Below are positions 26,770 to 37,546 of a stretch of DNA of 52,654 bases, piece by piece (the stretch's first letter is position 1; the number at the start of each line of letters is the position of its first letter). The stretch comes from a virus (lineage: Duplodnaviria; Caudoviricetes): the IMG/VR virus record IMGVR_UViG_3300010397_000015, positions 1 through 52,654 of that record, one strand, 5' to 3'. The position numbers and the translations under genes were made by a program. Under the pieces are notes generated by a model. The model was given only the letters and a program-made list of their open reading frames with translations, did no database searches and had not been told where the DNA came from.

Positions 26770-27065
26770 CCCTCGACCCCACGACCCGCGCGCTGATCGA
26801 CGCGGCGCTGAATCTGAAAATCTACGCGCGACTCAATGGCAAGTACGAGGTCGAAGACCGTGATGATCTCAGGGAATTTTTCGGCGCACGCATGAACTAC
26901 GTCGCCGCCCACAACACGCCCGACGCCCTGGAAGCCTCCGCCGCCCGATGCGCGGCGCTGGAGAAGGCTCTGCGACGGATTGCGTTCGAGCCGCAAGGGC
27001 CGGCCGATGCGACGCACGCCGAGGTTCTTTCGCGCGTTGAGGCGATTGCCAAGGAGGCACTATGA
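26766..27065 (+). CDS. Hypothetical protein
   Basis: ATGA-coupled. Confidence 0.55.
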   Translation: MTLDPTTRALIDAALNLKIYARLNGKYEVEDRDDLREFFGARMNYVAAHNTPDALEASAARCAALEKALRRIAFEPQGPADATHAEVLSRVEAIAKEAL

Positions 27066-29703: not shown

Positions 29704-30213
29704 ATGAAAGATAATGCATCAAAAGATCAGGCAACATCCTGTCCTGTGTGTGGATGCACTTCCGAAGCGGGATCATTCTCGTCTGGGTTTTTCCGCGTTG
29801 AGTGTCAGTTGGCCGATTGCTTGATCGGACCCGTTCGAGACACCGAGGCCGAAGCCATCGCCGCCTGGAACCGCGTCGCCGCGCGCCCCGCCCCGGTGGA
29901 CGCGGAGGGGCTGGACGATGACTCCGAAGCGAAGCGCCTATGGACGCGCCTCTACATGGACCTGGACCCCGGCAACGAGGACACGGACCCGTTCTGCGGC
30001 GTGTTCCCGCTCAAGCGCGCACGCGCCCTCGCCCGCCTCGTCGCCTCCGAGCGCGCTGGGGCGGTAGCGGAGTCCATCGACGAGGCATACAACCTTCGCA
30101 TCAGGCTGAGTGAGCGCGACGAGAAGATCAAGAGACAGTCCGAGGAGATCACGCGCTGCGGCCGTGCCGTGGAGAGCCTCCGGCGTGAGTTGGAGAAACG
30201 CAATGGGAAGTAG
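29704..30213 (+). CDS. Lar-family restriction-alleviation-like protein with C-terminal extension
   Basis: CPVCG...VECQLADC...TEAEAIAAWNR. Confidence 0.65.
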   Translation: MKDNASKDQATSCPVCGCTSEAGSFSSGFFRVECQLADCLIGPVRDTEAEAIAAWNRVAARPAPVDAEGLDDDSEAKRLWTRLYMDLDPGNEDTDPFCGVFPLKRARALARLVASERAGAVAESIDEAYNLRIRLSERDEKIKRQSEEITRCGRAVESLRRELEKRNGK

Positions 30214-30463: not shown

Positions 30464-30891
30464 GCGGAATCTCGCATTGGACCTGTCCGAAGTGTCAGCG
30501 CAGCTTCGCACACATGATCTCGGGTCGCAGCTTGGGCGCTCCGAAGTGCTACCACTGCGGGCACACGATCGACGCTGATGCGGTCGCGCGCGACGAGGCG
30601 ACGATCAATGCGATCCGCGATCGACTGGAAGCGGAAAGCCAAGCCGAGTGGGACGCGCGCGCTCCCGATCAGGAGGCTGCGTGGGAAGCCGGGCGGGCTG
30701 CGCGCCGACAGTACGACGCCGATGGACAGCCGCCGCTTGTCGGCACACAGATACGGAGCGGACCGCTCGCCGCGAACGAGCGGTGCCCGTACAAGTACAT
30801 TCCGCGTGCGCCCGAGCAGCATCCGCTTCGCGACTGGTGGCATCGAGGATGGACGCACGAAGAGTTCGAGCCGAAAGAAGATCCCCGATGA
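30460..30891 (+). CDS. Zn-ribbon protein
   Basis: WTCPKC..CYHCG; CPY..WWHRGW. Confidence 0.55.
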   Translation: MSGISHWTCPKCQRSFAHMISGRSLGAPKCYHCGHTIDADAVARDEATINAIRDRLEAESQAEWDARAPDQEAAWEAGRAARRQYDADGQPPLVGTQIRSGPLAANERCPYKYIPRAPEQHPLRDWWHRGWTHEEFEPKEDPR

Positions 30892-31349
30892 TGACCCCCG
30901 ACGACCTGGCCCGATTGGCGGAGGCGGCGATTGCCCCGAAGCGTCGCAAGAAGCCCAAGGCGCTCACACCCATGTCGGTGAAGGAGCTCGAGACGCGCGG
31001 CTACATCGTCGCCAAGATCGAGCAGCGCATCCCGCATTGTTTCATCACTCGCGATGCCTTCGGCGTGTTTGACCTCCTGGCCGCGAGCCGTGGCGGCGGC
31101 ATCGTGGGGGTGCAGGTTACGTCGGGAGCGAACGGAGCCGCCAGGCGCGACAAGATCCTGGCCGAACCGCAGGCGCGAACCTGGATCGAATCGGGCGGTC
31201 GGATCCTGCTCCATCTGTGGGCAAAGCGGAACGGTCGAACCGCAGGGGCTCGCAAGGCCTACTCGCTCGTCGAGGAAGAGATCGTGCTCGCTGACTTCCC
31301 TACGGCAGCAGCACACGCGACGTTCTCAGCTTCGCCAGCAGCGAGTTGA
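30888..31349 (+). CDS. PD-(D/E)XK nuclease (resolvase/VRR-NUC-like)
   Basis: RDAFGVFDLLA..VGVQVTS..ILLHLW; last gene of the plus-strand arm. Confidence 0.65.
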   Translation: MMTPDDLARLAEAAIAPKRRKKPKALTPMSVKELETRGYIVAKIEQRIPHCFITRDAFGVFDLLAASRGGGIVGVQVTSGANGAARRDKILAEPQARTWIESGGRILLHLWAKRNGRTAGARKAYSLVEEEIVLADFPTAAAHATFSASPAAS

Positions 31350-31929
31350 AGTCGGTCACGAGCGTCGAGAGCAGGATGGCGGTTGAGTTGGCCTGGGCCG
31401 AACCGGAGGCTAAGGCAACGTCGGTCAGGCCCTCCTGGAGCGTTCCGGCTCCCTTCGGAACGAAGCTGATGCTGACATCCGTGTCTGTTCCATCCGCCCC
31501 GAGTTGAAGTGGATCTCCAGCCCCCGATCCCGACAGATTCCAGAAGTTCACGGGCGTCGCCGACCCCGGCGAGAACGTGATGACCTTCACGTCCAGAACT
31601 CCGGTCGTGTGAATCTCCGTGATGCGCGGGGCGGATATCTGTTCCGCCCCCTGCACGACGCCTGTGGTACTCCACTCGATGCCGTCGCAGAAGATCGTGA
31701 TGGCAGAGTTGTGGGCGGACAGCACGCCGTAGGAGGTGCCTGTAGCGTCCTTGATCGTGACGGTGTTTGCCGTCGGGTCGCCCTTGATGATCGTAATCTG
31801 CGTGTTCGGCGCGGTCTTGTTCGCGTCGTCGATCGTCAAGATAATGTTGCTGGCGGTTGCGTCGACGATGTTGACGCTGGAAGAGGTTGGACTGTTAGGT
31901 CCAGAGGTTCGGAATGTGGTGACGATCAT
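31300..31929 (-). CDS. Virion/tail-fibre-type protein
   Basis: Thr-rich beta repeats ITIIKGD..TVTI..CDGIEW; C-terminal LVTDFNSLLAKLR; last gene of the minus-strand arm. Confidence 0.65.
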   Translation of the reverse strand: MIVTTFRTSGPNSPTSSSVNIVDATASNIILTIDDANKTAPNTQITIIKGDPTANTVTIKDATGTSYGVLSAHNSAITIFCDGIEWSTTGVVQGAEQISAPRITEIHTTGVLDVKVITFSPGSATPVNFWNLSGSGAGDPLQLGADGTDTDVSISFVPKGAGTLQEGLTDVALASGSAQANSTAILLSTLVTDFNSLLAKLRTSRVLLP

Positions 31930-32465
31930 CGGAGTGCCTTTCGTGTCTTGGTGATCTTCATCGGTTTATATCCGAACGCGAGCCTGCGCGTCCAGTCAGC
32001 TCCGACGAAGGCGTGTGCGAAAGCCCAGAAGCGGGAGTCGACGCCATTCTTTGTGAGCGCCGCCAACAGGTACTTACGTCGCAGGAGGCAGAATCCGCCG
32101 ACGGCGACCCAGACGATCCTCCAGCGCCACCGTGTCGCCCAGTCCTTGCCTTCCTCGGCGAGACTGGCCGCGTACTCGGCAGTCTGAGCCTTGGTTCGCC
32201 AGCGACGGAGCTCCGCGGTGAGAGCGTCCTCGCCGACGATCTCGCCCGACCGCAGCGCCGCGTTCTCCGCGACAGCGTGGACGACGAGCGCGCCGATCGC
32301 AGCTCCGACGATCGGACCGAACGGAGGGGCCAGCGTTCCGATTGCCGCGCCACCCGCAGCCCCGCCCGCAGGCGCCGCCGAGGACTTCACCGACGACCAC
32401 ATGGACGCGCACCCCGACAGTCCCCATAGGGCCAGGATTGCGAGCACGACAATCAGAACCGCGAC
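31926..32465 (-). pseudogene. 3' part of an interrupted lipoprotein gene (lipobox, glycine zipper, C-terminal TM)
   Basis: VAVLIVVLAILALWGLSGC with no start codon immediately upstream; joins in frame to 34729..34776. Confidence 0.65.
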
Positions 32466-32528
32466 CGTGAATACCTGATCGGACCTCCCGACGTCTTCGG
32501 GACCTATGACCTCGCGTGCTTCCGGCGC

Positions 32529-32726
32529 ATGGCGATCAAGCACATCCTCGGTCGAATGGGCGCGCTCCAGGCCAGCCAGATCGTGGAGCAGCTTGCTCGA
32601 TGTGATTGGCTCGCTGTCCCCAAGGACAAGGACCACGTGAAGCTCGATCTCAACGCGATGGACGACGCGAAGGAGATCAAGAAGGGCAGTTCTAGGAAGT
32701 GGGTACTTCGAGAGGAAAAGGCATGA
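32529..32726 (+). CDS. Passenger hypothetical protein (65 aa)
   Basis: ORF opposite to the flanking phage genes, inside the element. Confidence 0.5.
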   Translation: MAIKHILGRMGALQASQIVEQLARCDWLAVPKDKDHVKLDLNAMDDAKEIKKGSSRKWVLREEKA

Positions 32727-32735
32727 AGTGAGGTC

Positions 32736-32992
32736 GCCGGAACCCGTCGCTCTCCGGTTCAGAGAAGCGCGACGGGCCCGGCATAGCAGCCCCTCAAGGG
32801 GCAGATCGGAGGTGGGGCCTTGATTGCCCACTACCTGCGCGGCTACCGGGACGGACTCCCGCGTGGCTGCTTGTCGTGAAAGCCGAGGGGGGCTCGCGCC
32901 TCCCTCGGCCTCCTCGGCATTCCGACGGGCGCCATTGTAGACGATTCGCGCACCCGTCCAGCAATAGGCTGCCGGCGCATTGACCGGCAGCC
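32736..32992. ncRNA. Candidate structured RNA/DNA inside the element
   Basis: Five hairpins within ~260 nt between convergent passenger genes. Confidence 0.3.
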
Positions 32993-33058
32993 CCACGACG
33001 AGCAAGGACGGGGCGCGGATGGGTCCCTGGGCGGCCTTTACACCCTGCCTAGCGGGGA

Positions 33059-33265
33059 TCATTCCCCCGGCGCTCCACTCTTCACTCGTCGAACTCCCAG
33101 AGCTCTCAGGATGAGGGCTCGCACCCACTCCGAAGCGCCGGCCTCTCCGGCCATCGCGTCTACCTGGCCTCTCTCAGAAGCGGTCAGGCGAATCGTTAGG
33201 CGTTCCCCACGAGCCTTCCCCACCCCTAGGGGTGGCCGGCCTACGGGACGCTTCTTCGGGCGCAT
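33059..33265 (-). CDS. Ribbon-helix-helix DNA-binding protein
   Basis: GRPP..RLTIRLTASER..AGASEWVRALILRAL; has its own promoter. Confidence 0.7.
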   Translation of the reverse strand: MRPKKRPVGRPPLGVGKARGERLTIRLTASERGQVDAMAGEAGASEWVRALILRALGVRRVKSGAPGE

Positions 33266-33271
33266 GGAAGC

Positions 33272-33300
33272 AGCCTAGATATCGTCCGACAAAAAAGCAA
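33272..33300 (-). promoter_or_regulatory. Sigma70-type promoter, leaderless RHH transcript
   Basis: TTGCTT-17 bp-TAGGCT-6 nt-ATG. Confidence 0.65.
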
Positions 33301-33310
33301 CCCCCCCCCC

Positions 33311-33339
33311 TTGACGCGGGGCTATTATTGGCAGACAAT
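33311..33339 (+). promoter_or_regulatory. Sigma70-type promoter with overlapping palindrome, leaderless transposase transcript
   Basis: TTGACG-17 bp-GACAAT-7 nt-ATG; TATTATTG-N5-CAATAATA spans the -10. Confidence 0.7.
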
Positions 33340-33346
33340 AATACCC

Positions 33347-34177
33347 ATGTACAAGCTCCAGCCCGCCCAGCAGGTCCAGGTGATCTCCGCGCTCTCCGAA
33401 GGATGCTCCGTCCGGGGCACCGAGCGCATGACCGGAGTCCACCGCGACACGATTCTCCGCCTCCTCGTCCGCGTCGGGGAGGCGTGCAACGTCCTGCTCG
33501 ATCGGACGATGCGGGACCTCCCCTGTCGCCACATCCAGCTCGACGAGATGTGGACGTACGTCGGGAAGAAGCAGCGGCACATGACGGCGCAGGATGATCC
33601 GAACCGGAACGGCGATTTCTGGATCTGGTCCGCGATCGACAACGACACGCGGCTCGTTCCGACCTTCCGCCTCGGAAAGAGAACTCATCGCGATGCCAAC
33701 CTATTCGTCCGCGACCTTGAGGATCGGCTTCGCAACCGCGTGCAACTTAGCACCGACGCCCTCCCCGCCTACGTCGATGCGATCGACCGCGTCTTCTGCC
33801 CCAACAAGGTTGACTACGGCCAGATCGTAAAGTCGTACGAGGCCGAGCCGATGGGTCCGGGTAGGTACTCGCCTCCGCGCGTTGCGAGCACGGAGCGAAG
33901 GCCGGTCTTCGGCGATGTGGAAGAACGCTCGATCTCGACGAGCTACGTCGAGCGGCTCCACCTTCACAACCGGATGCGTTGCCGCAGGCTGACGCGCCTC
34001 GTGGACAGCTTCTCGCGGAAGGTCGAGAACCTGGAAGCCGCGCTCCGTCTTCACTACGCGGTCTACAACTTCGTGAAGCCGCACAAGTCGCTCAAGGGCG
34101 CGACTCCCGCGATGGCCGCCGGCGTCGCGGACGGTCACTACGGGATCAGCGATCTTGTGGAGCTGACGGGCTGGTAG
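33347..34177 (+). CDS. IS1-family DDE transposase (single ORF, HTH + DDE)
   Basis: EGCSVRGTERMTGVHRDT, QLDEMWTYVGKK, QLSTD, STSYVER, YNFVKPH, TPAMAAG. Confidence 0.88.
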   Translation: MYKLQPAQQVQVISALSEGCSVRGTERMTGVHRDTILRLLVRVGEACNVLLDRTMRDLPCRHIQLDEMWTYVGKKQRHMTAQDDPNRNGDFWIWSAIDNDTRLVPTFRLGKRTHRDANLFVRDLEDRLRNRVQLSTDALPAYVDAIDRVFCPNKVDYGQIVKSYEAEPMGPGRYSPPRVASTERRPVFGDVEERSISTSYVERLHLHNRMRCRRLTRLVDSFSRKVENLEAALRLHYAVYNFVKPHKSLKGATPAMAAGVADGHYGISDLVELTGW

Positions 34178-34666
34178 TCACGCCATCAGCTTGGGCAGGA
34201 CTCTCACCTGGGCCTCGCGGAAGGCGTCCTTGTCGATGAGGATCGACGAGCATTGGCCGCTAGGACATCCGCACCATAGCTGACTGCTCTTGTTCGGATT
34301 CTCCCCAACTCGAAGCTCGAACAGGTGCCCTCCCGTTTGGAAACACCGATCACAATGCGCGACAGGCTCTCCTGAGACTTGGGAGAGTGCCCATCGCATG
34401 TTGTGATGTGGAATCGTCTTCGGGCCCTTGGCGGGTTCTAGGGCTACGAGCAGGCCGGCAACCTGCTTCTCCAACGCCTCGATCCTCGCGCGGTGCCGGA
34501 ACAGGTCGATCACCGCGAGCACTCCTCGCTTGATCCCCCGTCCGATCGACCGAACCGAGCGCCAGAGCCACCGTGCCGCCGCGAAGTGGTTGTAGGCGAG
34601 CACCAGGGCGGCTCCGACGACGCCGATGAGCGTCCAGATTGCTGCGGGAGTCCATTGCGTAGGCAT
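34178..34666 (-). CDS. Passenger membrane protein with coiled coil and Zn ribbon
   Basis: N-terminal TM, RIEALEKQV, CDRC..CGC. Confidence 0.65.
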   Translation of the reverse strand: MPTQWTPAAIWTLIGVVGAALVLAYNHFAAARWLWRSVRSIGRGIKRGVLAVIDLFRHRARIEALEKQVAGLLVALEPAKGPKTIPHHNMRWALSQVSGEPVAHCDRCFQTGGHLFELRVGENPNKSSQLWCGCPSGQCSSILIDKDAFREAQVRVLPKLMA

Positions 34667-34728
34667 GAAGCGTGGAGGGTATCCATTGCTGCTCCACCGG
34701 CACTAAGCCGGCAAATTAGGACACCGCC

Positions 34729-34776
34729 GATCATCGCGAGGGCGTACTGGTTCGGGAAGTAGGGGTCGTTCGACAT
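34729..34776 (-). pseudogene. 5' part of the interrupted lipoprotein gene
   Basis: AAAGGA RBS + MSNDPYFPNQYALAMI, then the frame runs into the element end. Confidence 0.6.
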
Positions 34777-34806
34777 GGCGATCCTTTCAGGTGTGGATGT
34801 GGCTGG

Positions 34807-36135
34807 TCACGGGACTGTAACGAACCCCGCCTTGACGTGGCGAATGAGTCCGCTGGTCGGCACGAGCTTGCGATTCCAGTTTGCCTTCGACTGGCCGCGC
34901 GCAGCCTGAATGAACTCGTCGGTGGACGGGTTCCATCCGATCGTGTTGAGGTAGCTCGGGACGCCGCGAGACGGGGAGAAGTAGACCGCCGCTGCGTCCT
35001 CGAAGTGGTTTCCAGAGTACGAGACGCCCGCCAGGTCGCCCGATGGCTCGAGCCCGGCTCCCCAGCCGTCAATCACGTTGTCGTCGACTCGGAGGTCGTG
35101 AATGCCAATTCCAACCTCGCCCTCCAGGCGCAGTCCGCTCGGCTGCATTCCGCCGTTGTGGGCGATGACGTTGCCTTCGATCGAGCCCTTGCGGATGTTC
35201 GAGACCTGCATTCCCCAGCCGCGCGGGTTGGCTGCGTCGATGTCCCGGCCCTCCAGAACCAGGTTGCCCCGCACGGTGACGCCGACGCCGAGTGGGTCAG
35301 GCTGGTCGCCTCCGCCCAGGCTGAGGCCGATCGGGTTGCGCAGGAACAGGTTGCCCGTCACGCGACCGCCCGATCTGAGCTGCAGCCCGTGGCTCGAGGA
35401 CTGCGAGATGACGCACCCTTCGATCGTCGTCGGCCCGCCGCCATTCTGGCAGTAGATCCCGTGCCGGAAGATGTCGGGGTTCCAGCCGTTGTGGTCGAAC
35501 ACGCACTCGAAGAGCGAGAGGCCAGAGATCCCGGCCGCGTAGAGCCCCTGGACGTTGCCCAGGCTGCCCCAGGAGTCGAGCACGACGCACCGACGCAGCC
35601 GCACGTTCATCAGCGACCCGTCGAACCCGTAGAGGATCAGGCCGTTCCCGTAGCCAGCCCAGCGGCAGTCCTCGAACAGCACGTTGTTGACCGGCCGGAG
35701 GAAGTTGACCCCATTCGCTTCCGCGGCGCCGTCTCGACCGACCGCCTTGAAGTCGATTCCGATGAAGGCCGCGTGCTCGAACTTGGGCGGAGCTCCACCG
35801 CCTCCCTCGAAGTGCAGGGCCGTCGTGGTCGCGCTCGTGAGCAGGTGCGCTCGCTCGAGCCCGCCGTAGGTGCGCACGACGACCGGGTTCTGCGCGGACT
35901 CGCCAGACCAGATCCACTTCCCGAGCGGCTCGCTCCAGGTGTCCCCGCTCTTGAGACAGAGGTGGTCGCCGTGCCCTTGGCGAACGTTCTTGAGCGCCTC
36001 CGTAACCGTCCGCATCGGGGTCCTCGGGGTCGACCCAGCGTTCATGTCCGATCCCAGAGCTGAGACGTGGACGAGCCTGCCGTCCCCGGAGGGCGCCACA
36101 TCGGTCCATCCGTTCGGGTCGAGCGTGACCGTCAT
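34807..36135 (-). CDS. Right-handed beta-helix (pectin-lyase-like) protein, possible depolymerase
   Basis: VHVS..GSDMNAG..PMRT, LKSGDTW, repeated HGIY/HGLQLRSGG/GNL motifs. Confidence 0.8.
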   Translation of the reverse strand: MTVTLDPNGWTDVAPSGDGRLVHVSALGSDMNAGSTPRTPMRTVTEALKNVRQGHGDHLCLKSGDTWSEPLGKWIWSGESAQNPVVVRTYGGLERAHLLTSATTTALHFEGGGGAPPKFEHAAFIGIDFKAVGRDGAAEANGVNFLRPVNNVLFEDCRWAGYGNGLILYGFDGSLMNVRLRRCVVLDSWGSLGNVQGLYAAGISGLSLFECVFDHNGWNPDIFRHGIYCQNGGGPTTIEGCVISQSSSHGLQLRSGGRVTGNLFLRNPIGLSLGGGDQPDPLGVGVTVRGNLVLEGRDIDAANPRGWGMQVSNIRKGSIEGNVIAHNGGMQPSGLRLEGEVGIGIHDLRVDDNVIDGWGAGLEPSGDLAGVSYSGNHFEDAAAVYFSPSRGVPSYLNTIGWNPSTDEFIQAARGQSKANWNRKLVPTSGLIRHVKAGFVTVP

Positions 36136-36174
36136 GGGTAGTTTCCCGTAGCGGGAAGGAGTCTCTCAGAATCC

Positions 36175-36204
36175 TTGCGCAAGGGAATCGTCCGGGTCTA
36201 GGGT
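36175..36204 (+). promoter_or_regulatory. Promoter of a counter-oriented four-gene cassette
   Basis: TTGCGC-18 bp-TAGGGT-6 nt-ATG. Confidence 0.45.
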
Positions 36205-36210
36205 GGAGGC

Positions 36211-36558
36211 ATGACCAGCGAATCGAAACAGGCGAAGCACGACTTCGAGTCCCATCAGTCGACCGCGCCGGGGTTGCTCTCCAAGGACACCGACGCCTCG
36301 GCTGGACGGCTCCTGGACGTGCTGATCCTGAAGCAGCTCAAGTCGCTCGAGAACTCCAGCATGGGCGATGTGGTCGCCAAGCTGATCGTGATCGAGAAGC
36401 ATCTGCACGACGAGCACCAGGTTGCCGCCGACGCCTCGGGCCGCATCGAAGCAAGCCTCGCTCGCATCGAGCAGGCAGTCACAGACCTGGCCGAGAACGG
36501 AAAGGTCGTTGGCTACGAGATGCACTTCACCAACCCTCAGCAAGAAACGAAGGAATGA
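36211..36558 (+). CDS. Hypothetical coiled-coil protein
   Basis: 115-aa ORF coupled to the next gene. Confidence 0.6.
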   Translation: MTSESKQAKHDFESHQSTAPGLLSKDTDASAGRLLDVLILKQLKSLENSSMGDVVAKLIVIEKHLHDEHQVAADASGRIEASLARIEQAVTDLAENGKVVGYEMHFTNPQQETKE

Positions 36559-37183: not shown

Positions 37184-37546
37184 TCACGGACCGCCCCCGA
37201 GCTTCGAGACCAAGTACCCGACGACCGCGCCGACGATGATCATCGCAATCTGAGTCAGGCGCTCGCCGCCCTTCTCGCGGCCCTCCGCGCTGGCCCTGGA
37301 CCGTTCGAGTGTCTCGAGGCGGGCCTTGATCCCCTCCTGGGCAAGATCCACCTCGGCGCGTCTGGCGAATTCCTGGGCCTGCTCCTTCATCTGGGCGATG
37401 AGGCCGTTGGCGTGGTCGAGGCGGATCGTGAGCTGCGAACTGGCGATGGCGACGGCTGCGTCAGCCGCGGACGAACGAGCCTCGGCGGTCTTCTCCGCGT
37501 GCTGGACTCTGAGCTCGGTCCACTCCTTGAGCGGGACCGTCTCCAT
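37184..37546 (-). CDS. Coiled-coil protein with C-terminal TM (lysis accessory?)
   Basis: RLETLE..IAMIIVGAVVGYLV. Confidence 0.6.
   Translation of the reverse strand: METVPLKEWTELRVQHAEKTAEARSSAADAAVAIASSQLTIRLDHANGLIAQMKEQAQEFARRAEVDLAQEGIKARLETLERSRASAEGREKGGERLTQIAMIIVGAVVGYLVSKLGGGP

Follow-up and report, generated by a model that had tools for sequence, protein, structure and literature searches.

How did an insert with only one recognisable end come to lie inside a phage gene, and could it still leave that gene? The question is raised by a soil phage whose genome, the complete virus record IMGVR_UViG_3300010397_000015 (52,654 bp, referred to here as the window), carries about 2.3 kb of DNA related to the IS1 family of insertion sequences (IS) between a gene start and the body of a putative envelope lipoprotein gene. 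The original prediction for this locus described an IS1-family cargo element that is targeted to mimics of its own ends and possibly excises precisely, and that could act as a switch on a lysis or envelope gene. The analysis described here favours, with a probability of roughly 0.7, a left-truncated or one-ended copy of a cargo-carrying IS1-family element, which would be an immobile remnant and not a reversible switch.

A gene start, a gene body and an insert with one end

In the window, a gene start without a body and a gene body without a start lie 2.26 kb apart, and the following features define the locus:

34729-34798, minus strand: gene-start fragment, with the ribosome-binding site (RBS) GAAAGG, an ATG at 34776 and 16 codons to 34729, cut by the right end of the element
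31926-32465, minus strand: 3' part of the lipoprotein gene, 179 codons and a stop, with a hydrophobic core, lipobox LSGC, glycine zipper, long helix and short C-terminal hydrophobic segment
34710-34728, minus strand: right terminal inverted repeat, reading GGCGGTGTCCTAATTTGCC from the outside in
34729-34736, unstranded: 8 bp adjoining the right end, GATCATCG, the would-be copy of a target duplication, with no second copy at the left junction
32463-32466, unstranded: left junction, which is not a transposon end and has no inverted repeat and no duplication

Joining 34776-34729 to 32465-31926 yields, just as had been predicted, an open reading frame (ORF) of 195 codons with one terminal stop, where the lipobox cysteine is residue 35 (31-44 in close homologues) and GAAAGG stands 7-8 nt upstream of the ATG; the same type of RBS precedes the ATG at 31929 of the next gene. 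The join is in frame, and hydrophobicity runs unbroken across it. The 16-codon fragment has G or C at 16 of its 16 third codon positions, while the 3' part begins within the hydrophobic core and has no in-frame ATG, GTG or TTG at its expected start site in the window copy. Genes are tightly packed on both sides, with 30 nt separating the start fragment from the gene upstream and an ATGA overlap with the gene downstream.

Searches with the 3' part (179 aa) returned 12 homologues at E <= 0.001 (2.7e-61 to 2.5e-18) among 1503 candidates, P0001-P0004 being the closest, and a 13th, distant and in a different context, was found in viral contig L002. The homologues are 129-186 aa long, each with its own N-terminus, a lipobox Cys, the AAPAGGAAGGAA glycine zipper and the motif ENAxLRSGE, so that the predicted glycine zipper is a feature common to the family. 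The lipobox Cys is conserved without exception (13 of 13 aligned sequences), and the window fragment is short only of the N-region that all 13 homologues possess. Gene context is available for L002 alone, and there the lipoprotein gene follows genes for a small membrane protein and a further lipoprotein. Among 401 genomes of the phylum Planctomycetota, the lipoprotein family was represented by just two partial glycine-zipper matches.

The ends of the insert were judged against relatives of its transposase, which were gathered from a protein search of the 401 genomes of the phylum of L003 (the nearest relative, identical with L154 and part of a metagenome-assembled genome), from a scan of genome contigs and from two annotated plasmids. 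The transposase occurred at E <= 1e-40 in 17 of the 401 genomes. Both ends could be located in 12 elements (L160, L161, L162, L164, L004, L005, L175, L176, L177, L158, L183 and L184, where L004, L074 and L075 are a single locus). These elements are 2261-3372 bp long, and all 12 have terminal inverted repeats of 17-23 bp that start with GGTAGTG or a close variant and enclose 1.4-2.5 kb of passenger (non-transposase) DNA. Perfect 8-bp target duplications flank 10 of them (for L162 and L184 after one ambiguous G was assigned to the flank), with 7 bp in L177 and 5 of 8 positions in L004. In viral contigs, 14 elements of 220-3972 bp are likewise delimited by this repeat and flanked by perfect 8-bp duplications.

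The right end of the insert conforms to this family. Window positions 34712-34728 are identical to L003 1429-1445 at 15 of 17 positions, the match ends exactly at 34728, and it contains the sole 11-mer that the 623 nt of window searched have in common with the 76 nt following the L003 transposase gene. The repeat further agrees at 15/17 positions with the left repeat of L004 and at 16/17 with the L175 repeat, and the reverse complement of the window end fits the repeats of L004, L162, L175, L176 and L177. Read from the outside in, the window end is GGCGGTGTCCTAATTTG, compared with GGTAGTGTCCTAATTTG at both ends of L004 (an element of 2756 bp) and GGCGGTGTCCTAATC at both ends of L175 (2935 bp). 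Position 34728 is, judged from these alignments, the true end of the transposon, exact to the base.

No such end exists on the left. When the whole 52.6-kb record was searched on both strands with three variants of the repeat, allowing up to 6 mismatches in 19, only the copy at 34728 was found, and the 8 bp at the left flank agree with GATCATCG at 0 of 8 positions in either register. The original prediction, which saw neither a clear target duplication nor strong terminal inverted repeats, was therefore accurate as to what is present at the two junctions. A degenerate left repeat, GACCGTG at 32463, was rejected as no better than random windows (quantiles 0.98 and 0.067), as was GATCATCG at 31924 as a displaced duplication, which has no adjoining repeat and is an 8-mer that occurs seven times in the window. 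The left arm, measured from the junction to a tRNA-like RNA inside the insert, is 544 nt long, compared with 703-1717 nt in L158, L176, L177 and L175. Near-identical copies of the element that would define its left end were sought in viral, genome and metagenome contigs, and none was found.

Proposed origin of the one-ended copy

In the course of events proposed here, a cargo-carrying IS1-family element of about 2.3 kb would have entered a gene of the soil phage at codon 16/17, and its left terminus would later have been lost by deletion, or would never have arrived. Missing on that side would be the repeat, one copy of the duplication and probably hundreds of left-arm bases, alongside an amount of phage DNA that is possibly zero, and the interior of the element would now be fused directly to the lipoprotein gene at 32465/32466, near its codon 17. 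An ordinary insertion followed by loss of the left terminus is the most likely form of this history. Because only one end is left for the transposase, transposase-driven excision is not available, and the transposase can presumably no longer move or excise the window copy; the lipoprotein gene is probably inactivated, or at best aberrantly expressed. Of the original prediction, the IS1-family cargo element interrupting a phage gene and its right boundary at 34728 thus stand, whereas the precisely excising switch falls with the missing end.

Both junctions were checked by aligning contigs of four soil runs (X1-X4) to positions 30500-36500. The left junction is bridged with 0 differences by contigs of X1, X2 and X4, and the right junction by identical contigs in X1, X2 and X3; X1 is possibly the source run, and each junction is bridged in two other runs. 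It is hardly credible, then, that the junctions are artefacts of joined phage and host contigs: the X1 contigs are indeed interrupted at 33234-33305, close to ten consecutive C (33302-33311, between the ribbon-helix-helix and transposase genes of the insert), as such a chimera might, but an X2 contig (32136-33350) spans the gap and both junctions are bridged without differences in at least two runs besides the possible source. In the same contigs, which cannot show rare variants and hence give weak evidence, neither the empty-site junction that precise excision should leave nor a circle junction was seen; none joins 32465 to 34729, and the occupied form is the only one present. The sole joint reported (33477-33812, with 331 other letters between) was rejected as a diverged transposase of another organism. 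Viral contigs were also scanned for a sister phage free of the insert. Neither the lipoprotein fragment, alone or as an alignment, nor the two neighbouring proteins (209 aa and beta-helix), nor a degenerate pattern built on the first 12 codons led to a close relative.

The view that the insert is a complete element which naturally lacks repeats and duplications, excises precisely and switches the lipoprotein gene draws on the in-frame join, on the plausible 195-aa lipoprotein that it creates and on the likeness of the left flank to the right end, where 32451-32465 and 34714-34728 are indeed identical at 10 of 15 positions, as had been noted. Nominally such an identity is uncommon: it occurs in 6.8e-4 of window 15-mers, which corresponds to about 0.005 over 7 registers. 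However, the two 15-mers have no uninterrupted identical stretch of more than 3 nt in common, which makes them ill suited to repeat-mediated excision, and the flanks of ten relatives resemble the element ends at chance level only (2-7 of 14-15 positions on the left, 1-6 of 15 on the right), so that targeting of end mimics is not a trait of the family. Nor is the family naturally devoid of repeats and duplications, since every two-ended relative has the former and ten have the latter in perfect form; the window's right end is itself a normal family repeat, which makes the missing left end a loss and not a design. With no joint across the element in the contigs of the four runs, weak as that evidence is, the switch is very improbable. 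A one-ended or aberrant insertion, in which only the right end was used, the donor was joined at some arbitrary point in its interior and the phage lost no DNA, would by comparison explain why the right end is exact while the left lies arbitrarily in an open frame without a start before 32529; the in-frame join, the family-typical length before the Cys and the missing duplication also fit such a non-canonical event. Under it the joined ORF would be the true ancestral gene, and the copy would be no less immobile. To our knowledge, however, one-ended transposition is not on record for IS1-family elements, none of the 12 two-ended relatives is one-ended, and the present data cannot tell this event from a later deletion; it is considered unlikely.

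A separate issue is whether the 16 codons and the lipoprotein body were ever one gene. It is possible, though doubtful, that the fragment stems from a different small membrane-protein gene, that a deletion took away the remainder of that gene, whatever lay between and the 5' end of the lipoprotein gene, and that the in-frame join is a coincidence. The fragment has no Lys or Arg, of which all 13 homologues carry at least one before the hydrophobic core, it resembles no homologue's N-terminus significantly (shuffle p above 0.01 in every case, the P0004 stretch included), and in L002 two other genes, one of them for a small membrane protein, precede the lipoprotein gene. Set against this are the frame and the continuous hydrophobicity of the join, the tight gene packing on both sides and the lack of significant similarity between the fragment and the small membrane protein of L002 (p 0.43). 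The original prediction had named a different N-terminus in homologues of the 3' part as a finding that would speak against it, and each homologue does have its own; this carries little weight, since the N-regions of signal peptides diverge quickly. On balance, the view that the fragment is the lipoprotein's own start is slightly favoured.

Several points weigh against a left-truncated copy as the explanation of the insert. The 10/15 likeness of the left flank to the right repeat is unexplained by truncation, and the in-frame join with its sensible signal-peptide length would be expected more readily from an insertion that cost little or no sequence than from a random deletion. In L003/L154, the nearest relative, the contig ends within the left arm, 250 nt to the left of the tRNA-like RNA, and offers no comparison with the window's arm. 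No sister phage or empty site was found that would show how much phage DNA was lost, if any, and the deletion is one that we infer. Finally, the transposase scores under the curated IS1 cut-offs, with 60.9 bits against a cut-off of 100 for the NCBIfam IS1 model and 23.6 against 24.1 for Pfam DDE_Tnp_IS1.

A left-truncated or one-ended remnant would close the idea of a new class of end-mimicking, precisely excising switch. In its place would stand a decayed canonical transposon that has disabled a phage envelope lipoprotein gene or at the least cut off its start, a disrupted form that persists in several soil samples. The locus would also be a clear case of a passenger-carrying IS1-family element within a phage genome, and the ends, duplication size and core gene set are now defined for a poorly described IS1 clade.

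Cargo, relatives and a tRNA-like RNA

The insert carries, in plus-strand order, orf65, a structured region, the tRNA-like RNA, a ribbon-helix-helix (RHH) gene, the transposase gene and orf162:

32466-32726, plus strand: orf65, a cargo ORF with its ATG at 32529 and a frame open back to the left junction
33010-33078, plus strand: tRNA-like structured RNA of 69 nt, with a 7-bp acceptor stem, G3·U70 and a T arm, upstream of the transposase gene
33059-33265, minus strand: small RHH (Arc/CopG-like) gene, divergent from the transposase gene, matching a PHROG Arc-like repressor at E 5e-4
33347-34177, plus strand: single-ORF DDE transposase of 276 aa, for which IS1 is the best family in both NCBIfam and Pfam
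34178-34666, minus strand: orf162, a full-length cargo gene encoding a hydrophobic N-terminal segment followed by a Cys-rich C-terminal domain

The transposase is 59-61% identical to copies in Planctomycetota genomes (59% for L003) and 39-41% identical to RefSeq relatives named 'IS1 family transposase', and it has many archaeal relatives (Methanosarcinales) at 27-30%. It has no internal stop, and a single ORF is likewise found in 16 of the 17 matching genomes. The transposase of L176 (G034:C5) has one in-frame TGA, and L176 is the sole element with two tandem tRNA-like RNAs. An unannotated relative was also noticed in a cultured jumbo phage, Brevundimonas phage vB_BpoS-Gurke (ON529850.1 174797-175660), with 33% identity over 98% of the query.

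The stop codons of orf162 and the transposase gene abut. The orf162 homologue P0015 (166 aa, 42% identity) aligns from 10 to 164 with residues 4-160, so that the C-termini are aligned. Because orf162 is complete and its stop touches that of the transposase gene, it is not a phage gene cut by a small IS but travels with the transposase, and it occupies the slot between transposase gene and right repeat that holds other passenger genes in the relatives. It has no match in Pfam, PHROG or NCBIfam, and its alignment found no relative in viral contigs. A protein that differs from orf162 by one substitution, P0014, is encoded on a 999-bp contig. The orf65 frame lacks a start codon in 32466-32528, where third-position GC (guanine plus cytosine) is 16/21, and codon-position GC supports the plus-strand frame from about 32460. 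Searches with orf65 returned only the window's own protein, and no weak match was seen in the relatives' elements.

In close relatives the core of the element consists of the tRNA-like RNA, the divergent RHH gene and the single-ORF DDE transposase, with passengers on either side; RHH homologues lie at the same position in L154, L176, L177 and L158, and elsewhere within the L004 element. Members of the clade are found in Planctomycetota, Acidobacteriota, Chloroflexota and alphaproteobacterial plasmids. Two passengers recur. More distant members carry a small Lys/Gly-rich protein just inside the left repeat (L160 90-335, L161, L164, L005 2346-2576 and L184 1075-1284), for which the annotation in CP050295.1 is 'histone H1'. 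The other passenger, about 100 aa long and bearing the motif VW-G-VEVF-L-GHP...YAWSH, usually lies between the transposase gene and the right repeat:

L004 4813-5124; L175 element 287-583; L176 element 2328-2690: ~100-aa passenger
L177 element 2593-2901; L158 element 1871-2212: ~100-aa passenger

Viral contigs also hold short elements of 220-790 bp that resemble miniature inverted-repeat transposable elements, each with the same repeat and a perfect 8-bp duplication; these look like non-autonomous derivatives of this IS family:

L205 9719-9938; L203 615-1037; L209 6333-6737: short repeat-bounded elements
L192 4664-5452; L198 2397-3169; L242 5176-5965: short repeat-bounded elements

Solitary matches to the repeat pattern, present in 76 IMG/VR contigs, were considered as evidence of frequent solo ends and set aside, since a rough estimate of the chance matches to a 17-mer with three two-fold positions in that collection was of the same order; only the 14 pairs with perfect 8-bp duplications were counted.

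The tRNA-like RNA was found in further copies, 68-70 nt long, with the RHH gene ending at the 3' side of the RNA:

L154 250-319; L158 860-928; L175 5363-5431; L177 8582-8651: tRNA-like RNA
L176 8022-8090 and 8101-8170: tRNA-like RNA, two copies
L223 6114-6182; L186 10166-10234 (minus strand); L221 5976-6045: tRNA-like RNA in viral contigs

Across seven aligned copies, pairing holds in 96.1% of cells and 13 of the 22 pairs have changed on both sides; 0 of 500 shuffles reached these values and slid controls paired at 39-55%, which gives the cloverleaf-like fold strong support from covariation. All seven copies retain G3·U70 amid covariation elsewhere in the acceptor stem. The D arm is short, and the 'anticodon' stem of about 8 bp bears a loop with conserved UACA (N-U-A-C-A). 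ARAGORN makes no tRNA call at these sites, and Rfam has no match at gathering score (for the L003 copy the best were mascRNA at 28.6 bits and tRNA-Sec at 18.4 bits). The conserved block beside the L003 transposase gene was rejected as a host transfer-messenger RNA (tmRNA) gene, since the hosts' tmRNA lies elsewhere and has different ends. Upstream of the tRNA-like RNA, 32775-33010 aligns with L003 16-250, and hairpins are kept through base changes (for example GCCCC-UCAA-GGGGC versus GCCCC-GCAA-GGGGC); this stretch and the tRNA-like RNA may form one longer RNA.

A literature search found no description of a tRNA-like RNA in a prokaryotic DDE IS. The proposal that the clade encodes its own tRNA-like RNA of alanine identity, which if working would be a new kind of IS-borne regulatory or decoding RNA, is put forward tentatively, as the less probable reading of these data. 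A working RNA could be processed by RNase P/Z, be charged by alanyl-tRNA synthetase and insulate or tune transposase expression; alternatively, it could decode UA-N codons in the manner of a suppressor. With current interest in the RNA partners of DDE transposons, the tRNA-like RNA is the feature that could matter more widely. It is testable in cultivable hosts, and it is the item most worth following up.

A P22-like portal gene is present in the phage, in which structural genes form a long minus-strand series that extends from 52558 to about 31300 and includes one for a collagen-like tail-fibre protein; the interrupted gene and its insert lie at the end of this series, between two neighbours:

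34807-36135: beta-helix protein of 442 aa, upstream of the gene start at 34776
31300-31929: 209-aa protein with a tail-fibre-type C-terminus and its ATG at 31929, downstream of the lipoprotein fragment

Elsewhere in the window, ARAGORN calls a tRNA-Ile (anticodon GAT, 91 nt, 26915-27005, plus strand), and a Lar-like restriction alleviation protein has a weak PHROG match (29704-30213, plus strand, E 5.5e-5).

Comparison with known systems

The interrupted lipoprotein invites comparison with unimolecular spanins such as gp11 of phage T1, which has an N-terminal lipoprotein signal, a C-terminal hydrophobic segment and a similar size. The original prediction drew this parallel from a C-terminal transmembrane segment; a hydrophobic stretch is present there, but it comprises only 12-16 uncharged residues, with a Kyte-Doolittle maximum over 19 residues of 0.7-1.4, and is a weaker point of that parallel. 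The AlphaFold2 model is all helical and of modest confidence (pLDDT 70.7, pTM 0.38), and it was not used for a fold search, in which long helices give meaningless matches. Unlike the spanin, the window protein has no sequence or family match, and a Protein Atlas search returned unnamed viral clusters only. No holin or endolysin was identified beside the gene, whose neighbours are the beta-helix and tail-fibre-like genes, and the sole nearby lysis-type match is a weak PHROG 'hemolysin' at 37184-37546. The spanin analogy is thus one of topology.

The tRNA-like RNA recalls tRNA-Ala and the tRNA-like domain of tmRNA in its 7-bp acceptor stem, G3·U70, T arm and cloverleaf-like fold. It differs from tmRNA in that the ordinary tmRNA genes of the host genomes have different acceptor sequences.

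The element as a whole is closest to IS1 of the E. coli type, with which it shares an apparently related DDE transposase, as the RefSeq name of its relatives reflects, and, in the relatives, repeats that start GG-N3-TG, the end consensus of the IS1 family. IS1 makes target duplications of 8-9 bp, and those of the relatives here are 8 bp. In classical IS1 the transposase is the product of an InsA/InsB pair joined by -1 frameshifting, whereas in this clade it is a single ORF; the elements measure 2.3-3.4 kb with passengers as opposed to 768 bp, part of the clade has a tRNA-like RNA and an RHH gene, and the window copy has one end only. The single-ORF transposase, the many archaeal relatives and the size suggest a possible kinship with the ISMhu11 subgroup of the IS1 family in ISfinder, whose members reach up to several kb. 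With transporter IS (tIS) it shares the carriage of passengers, which are found in all 12 two-ended relatives and, in the window, include a complete orf162 between the transposase gene and the right repeat. The passengers are of another kind, however, being not resistance or metabolic genes but a histone-H1-like protein, the ~100-aa protein, the RHH protein, orf162 and orf65.

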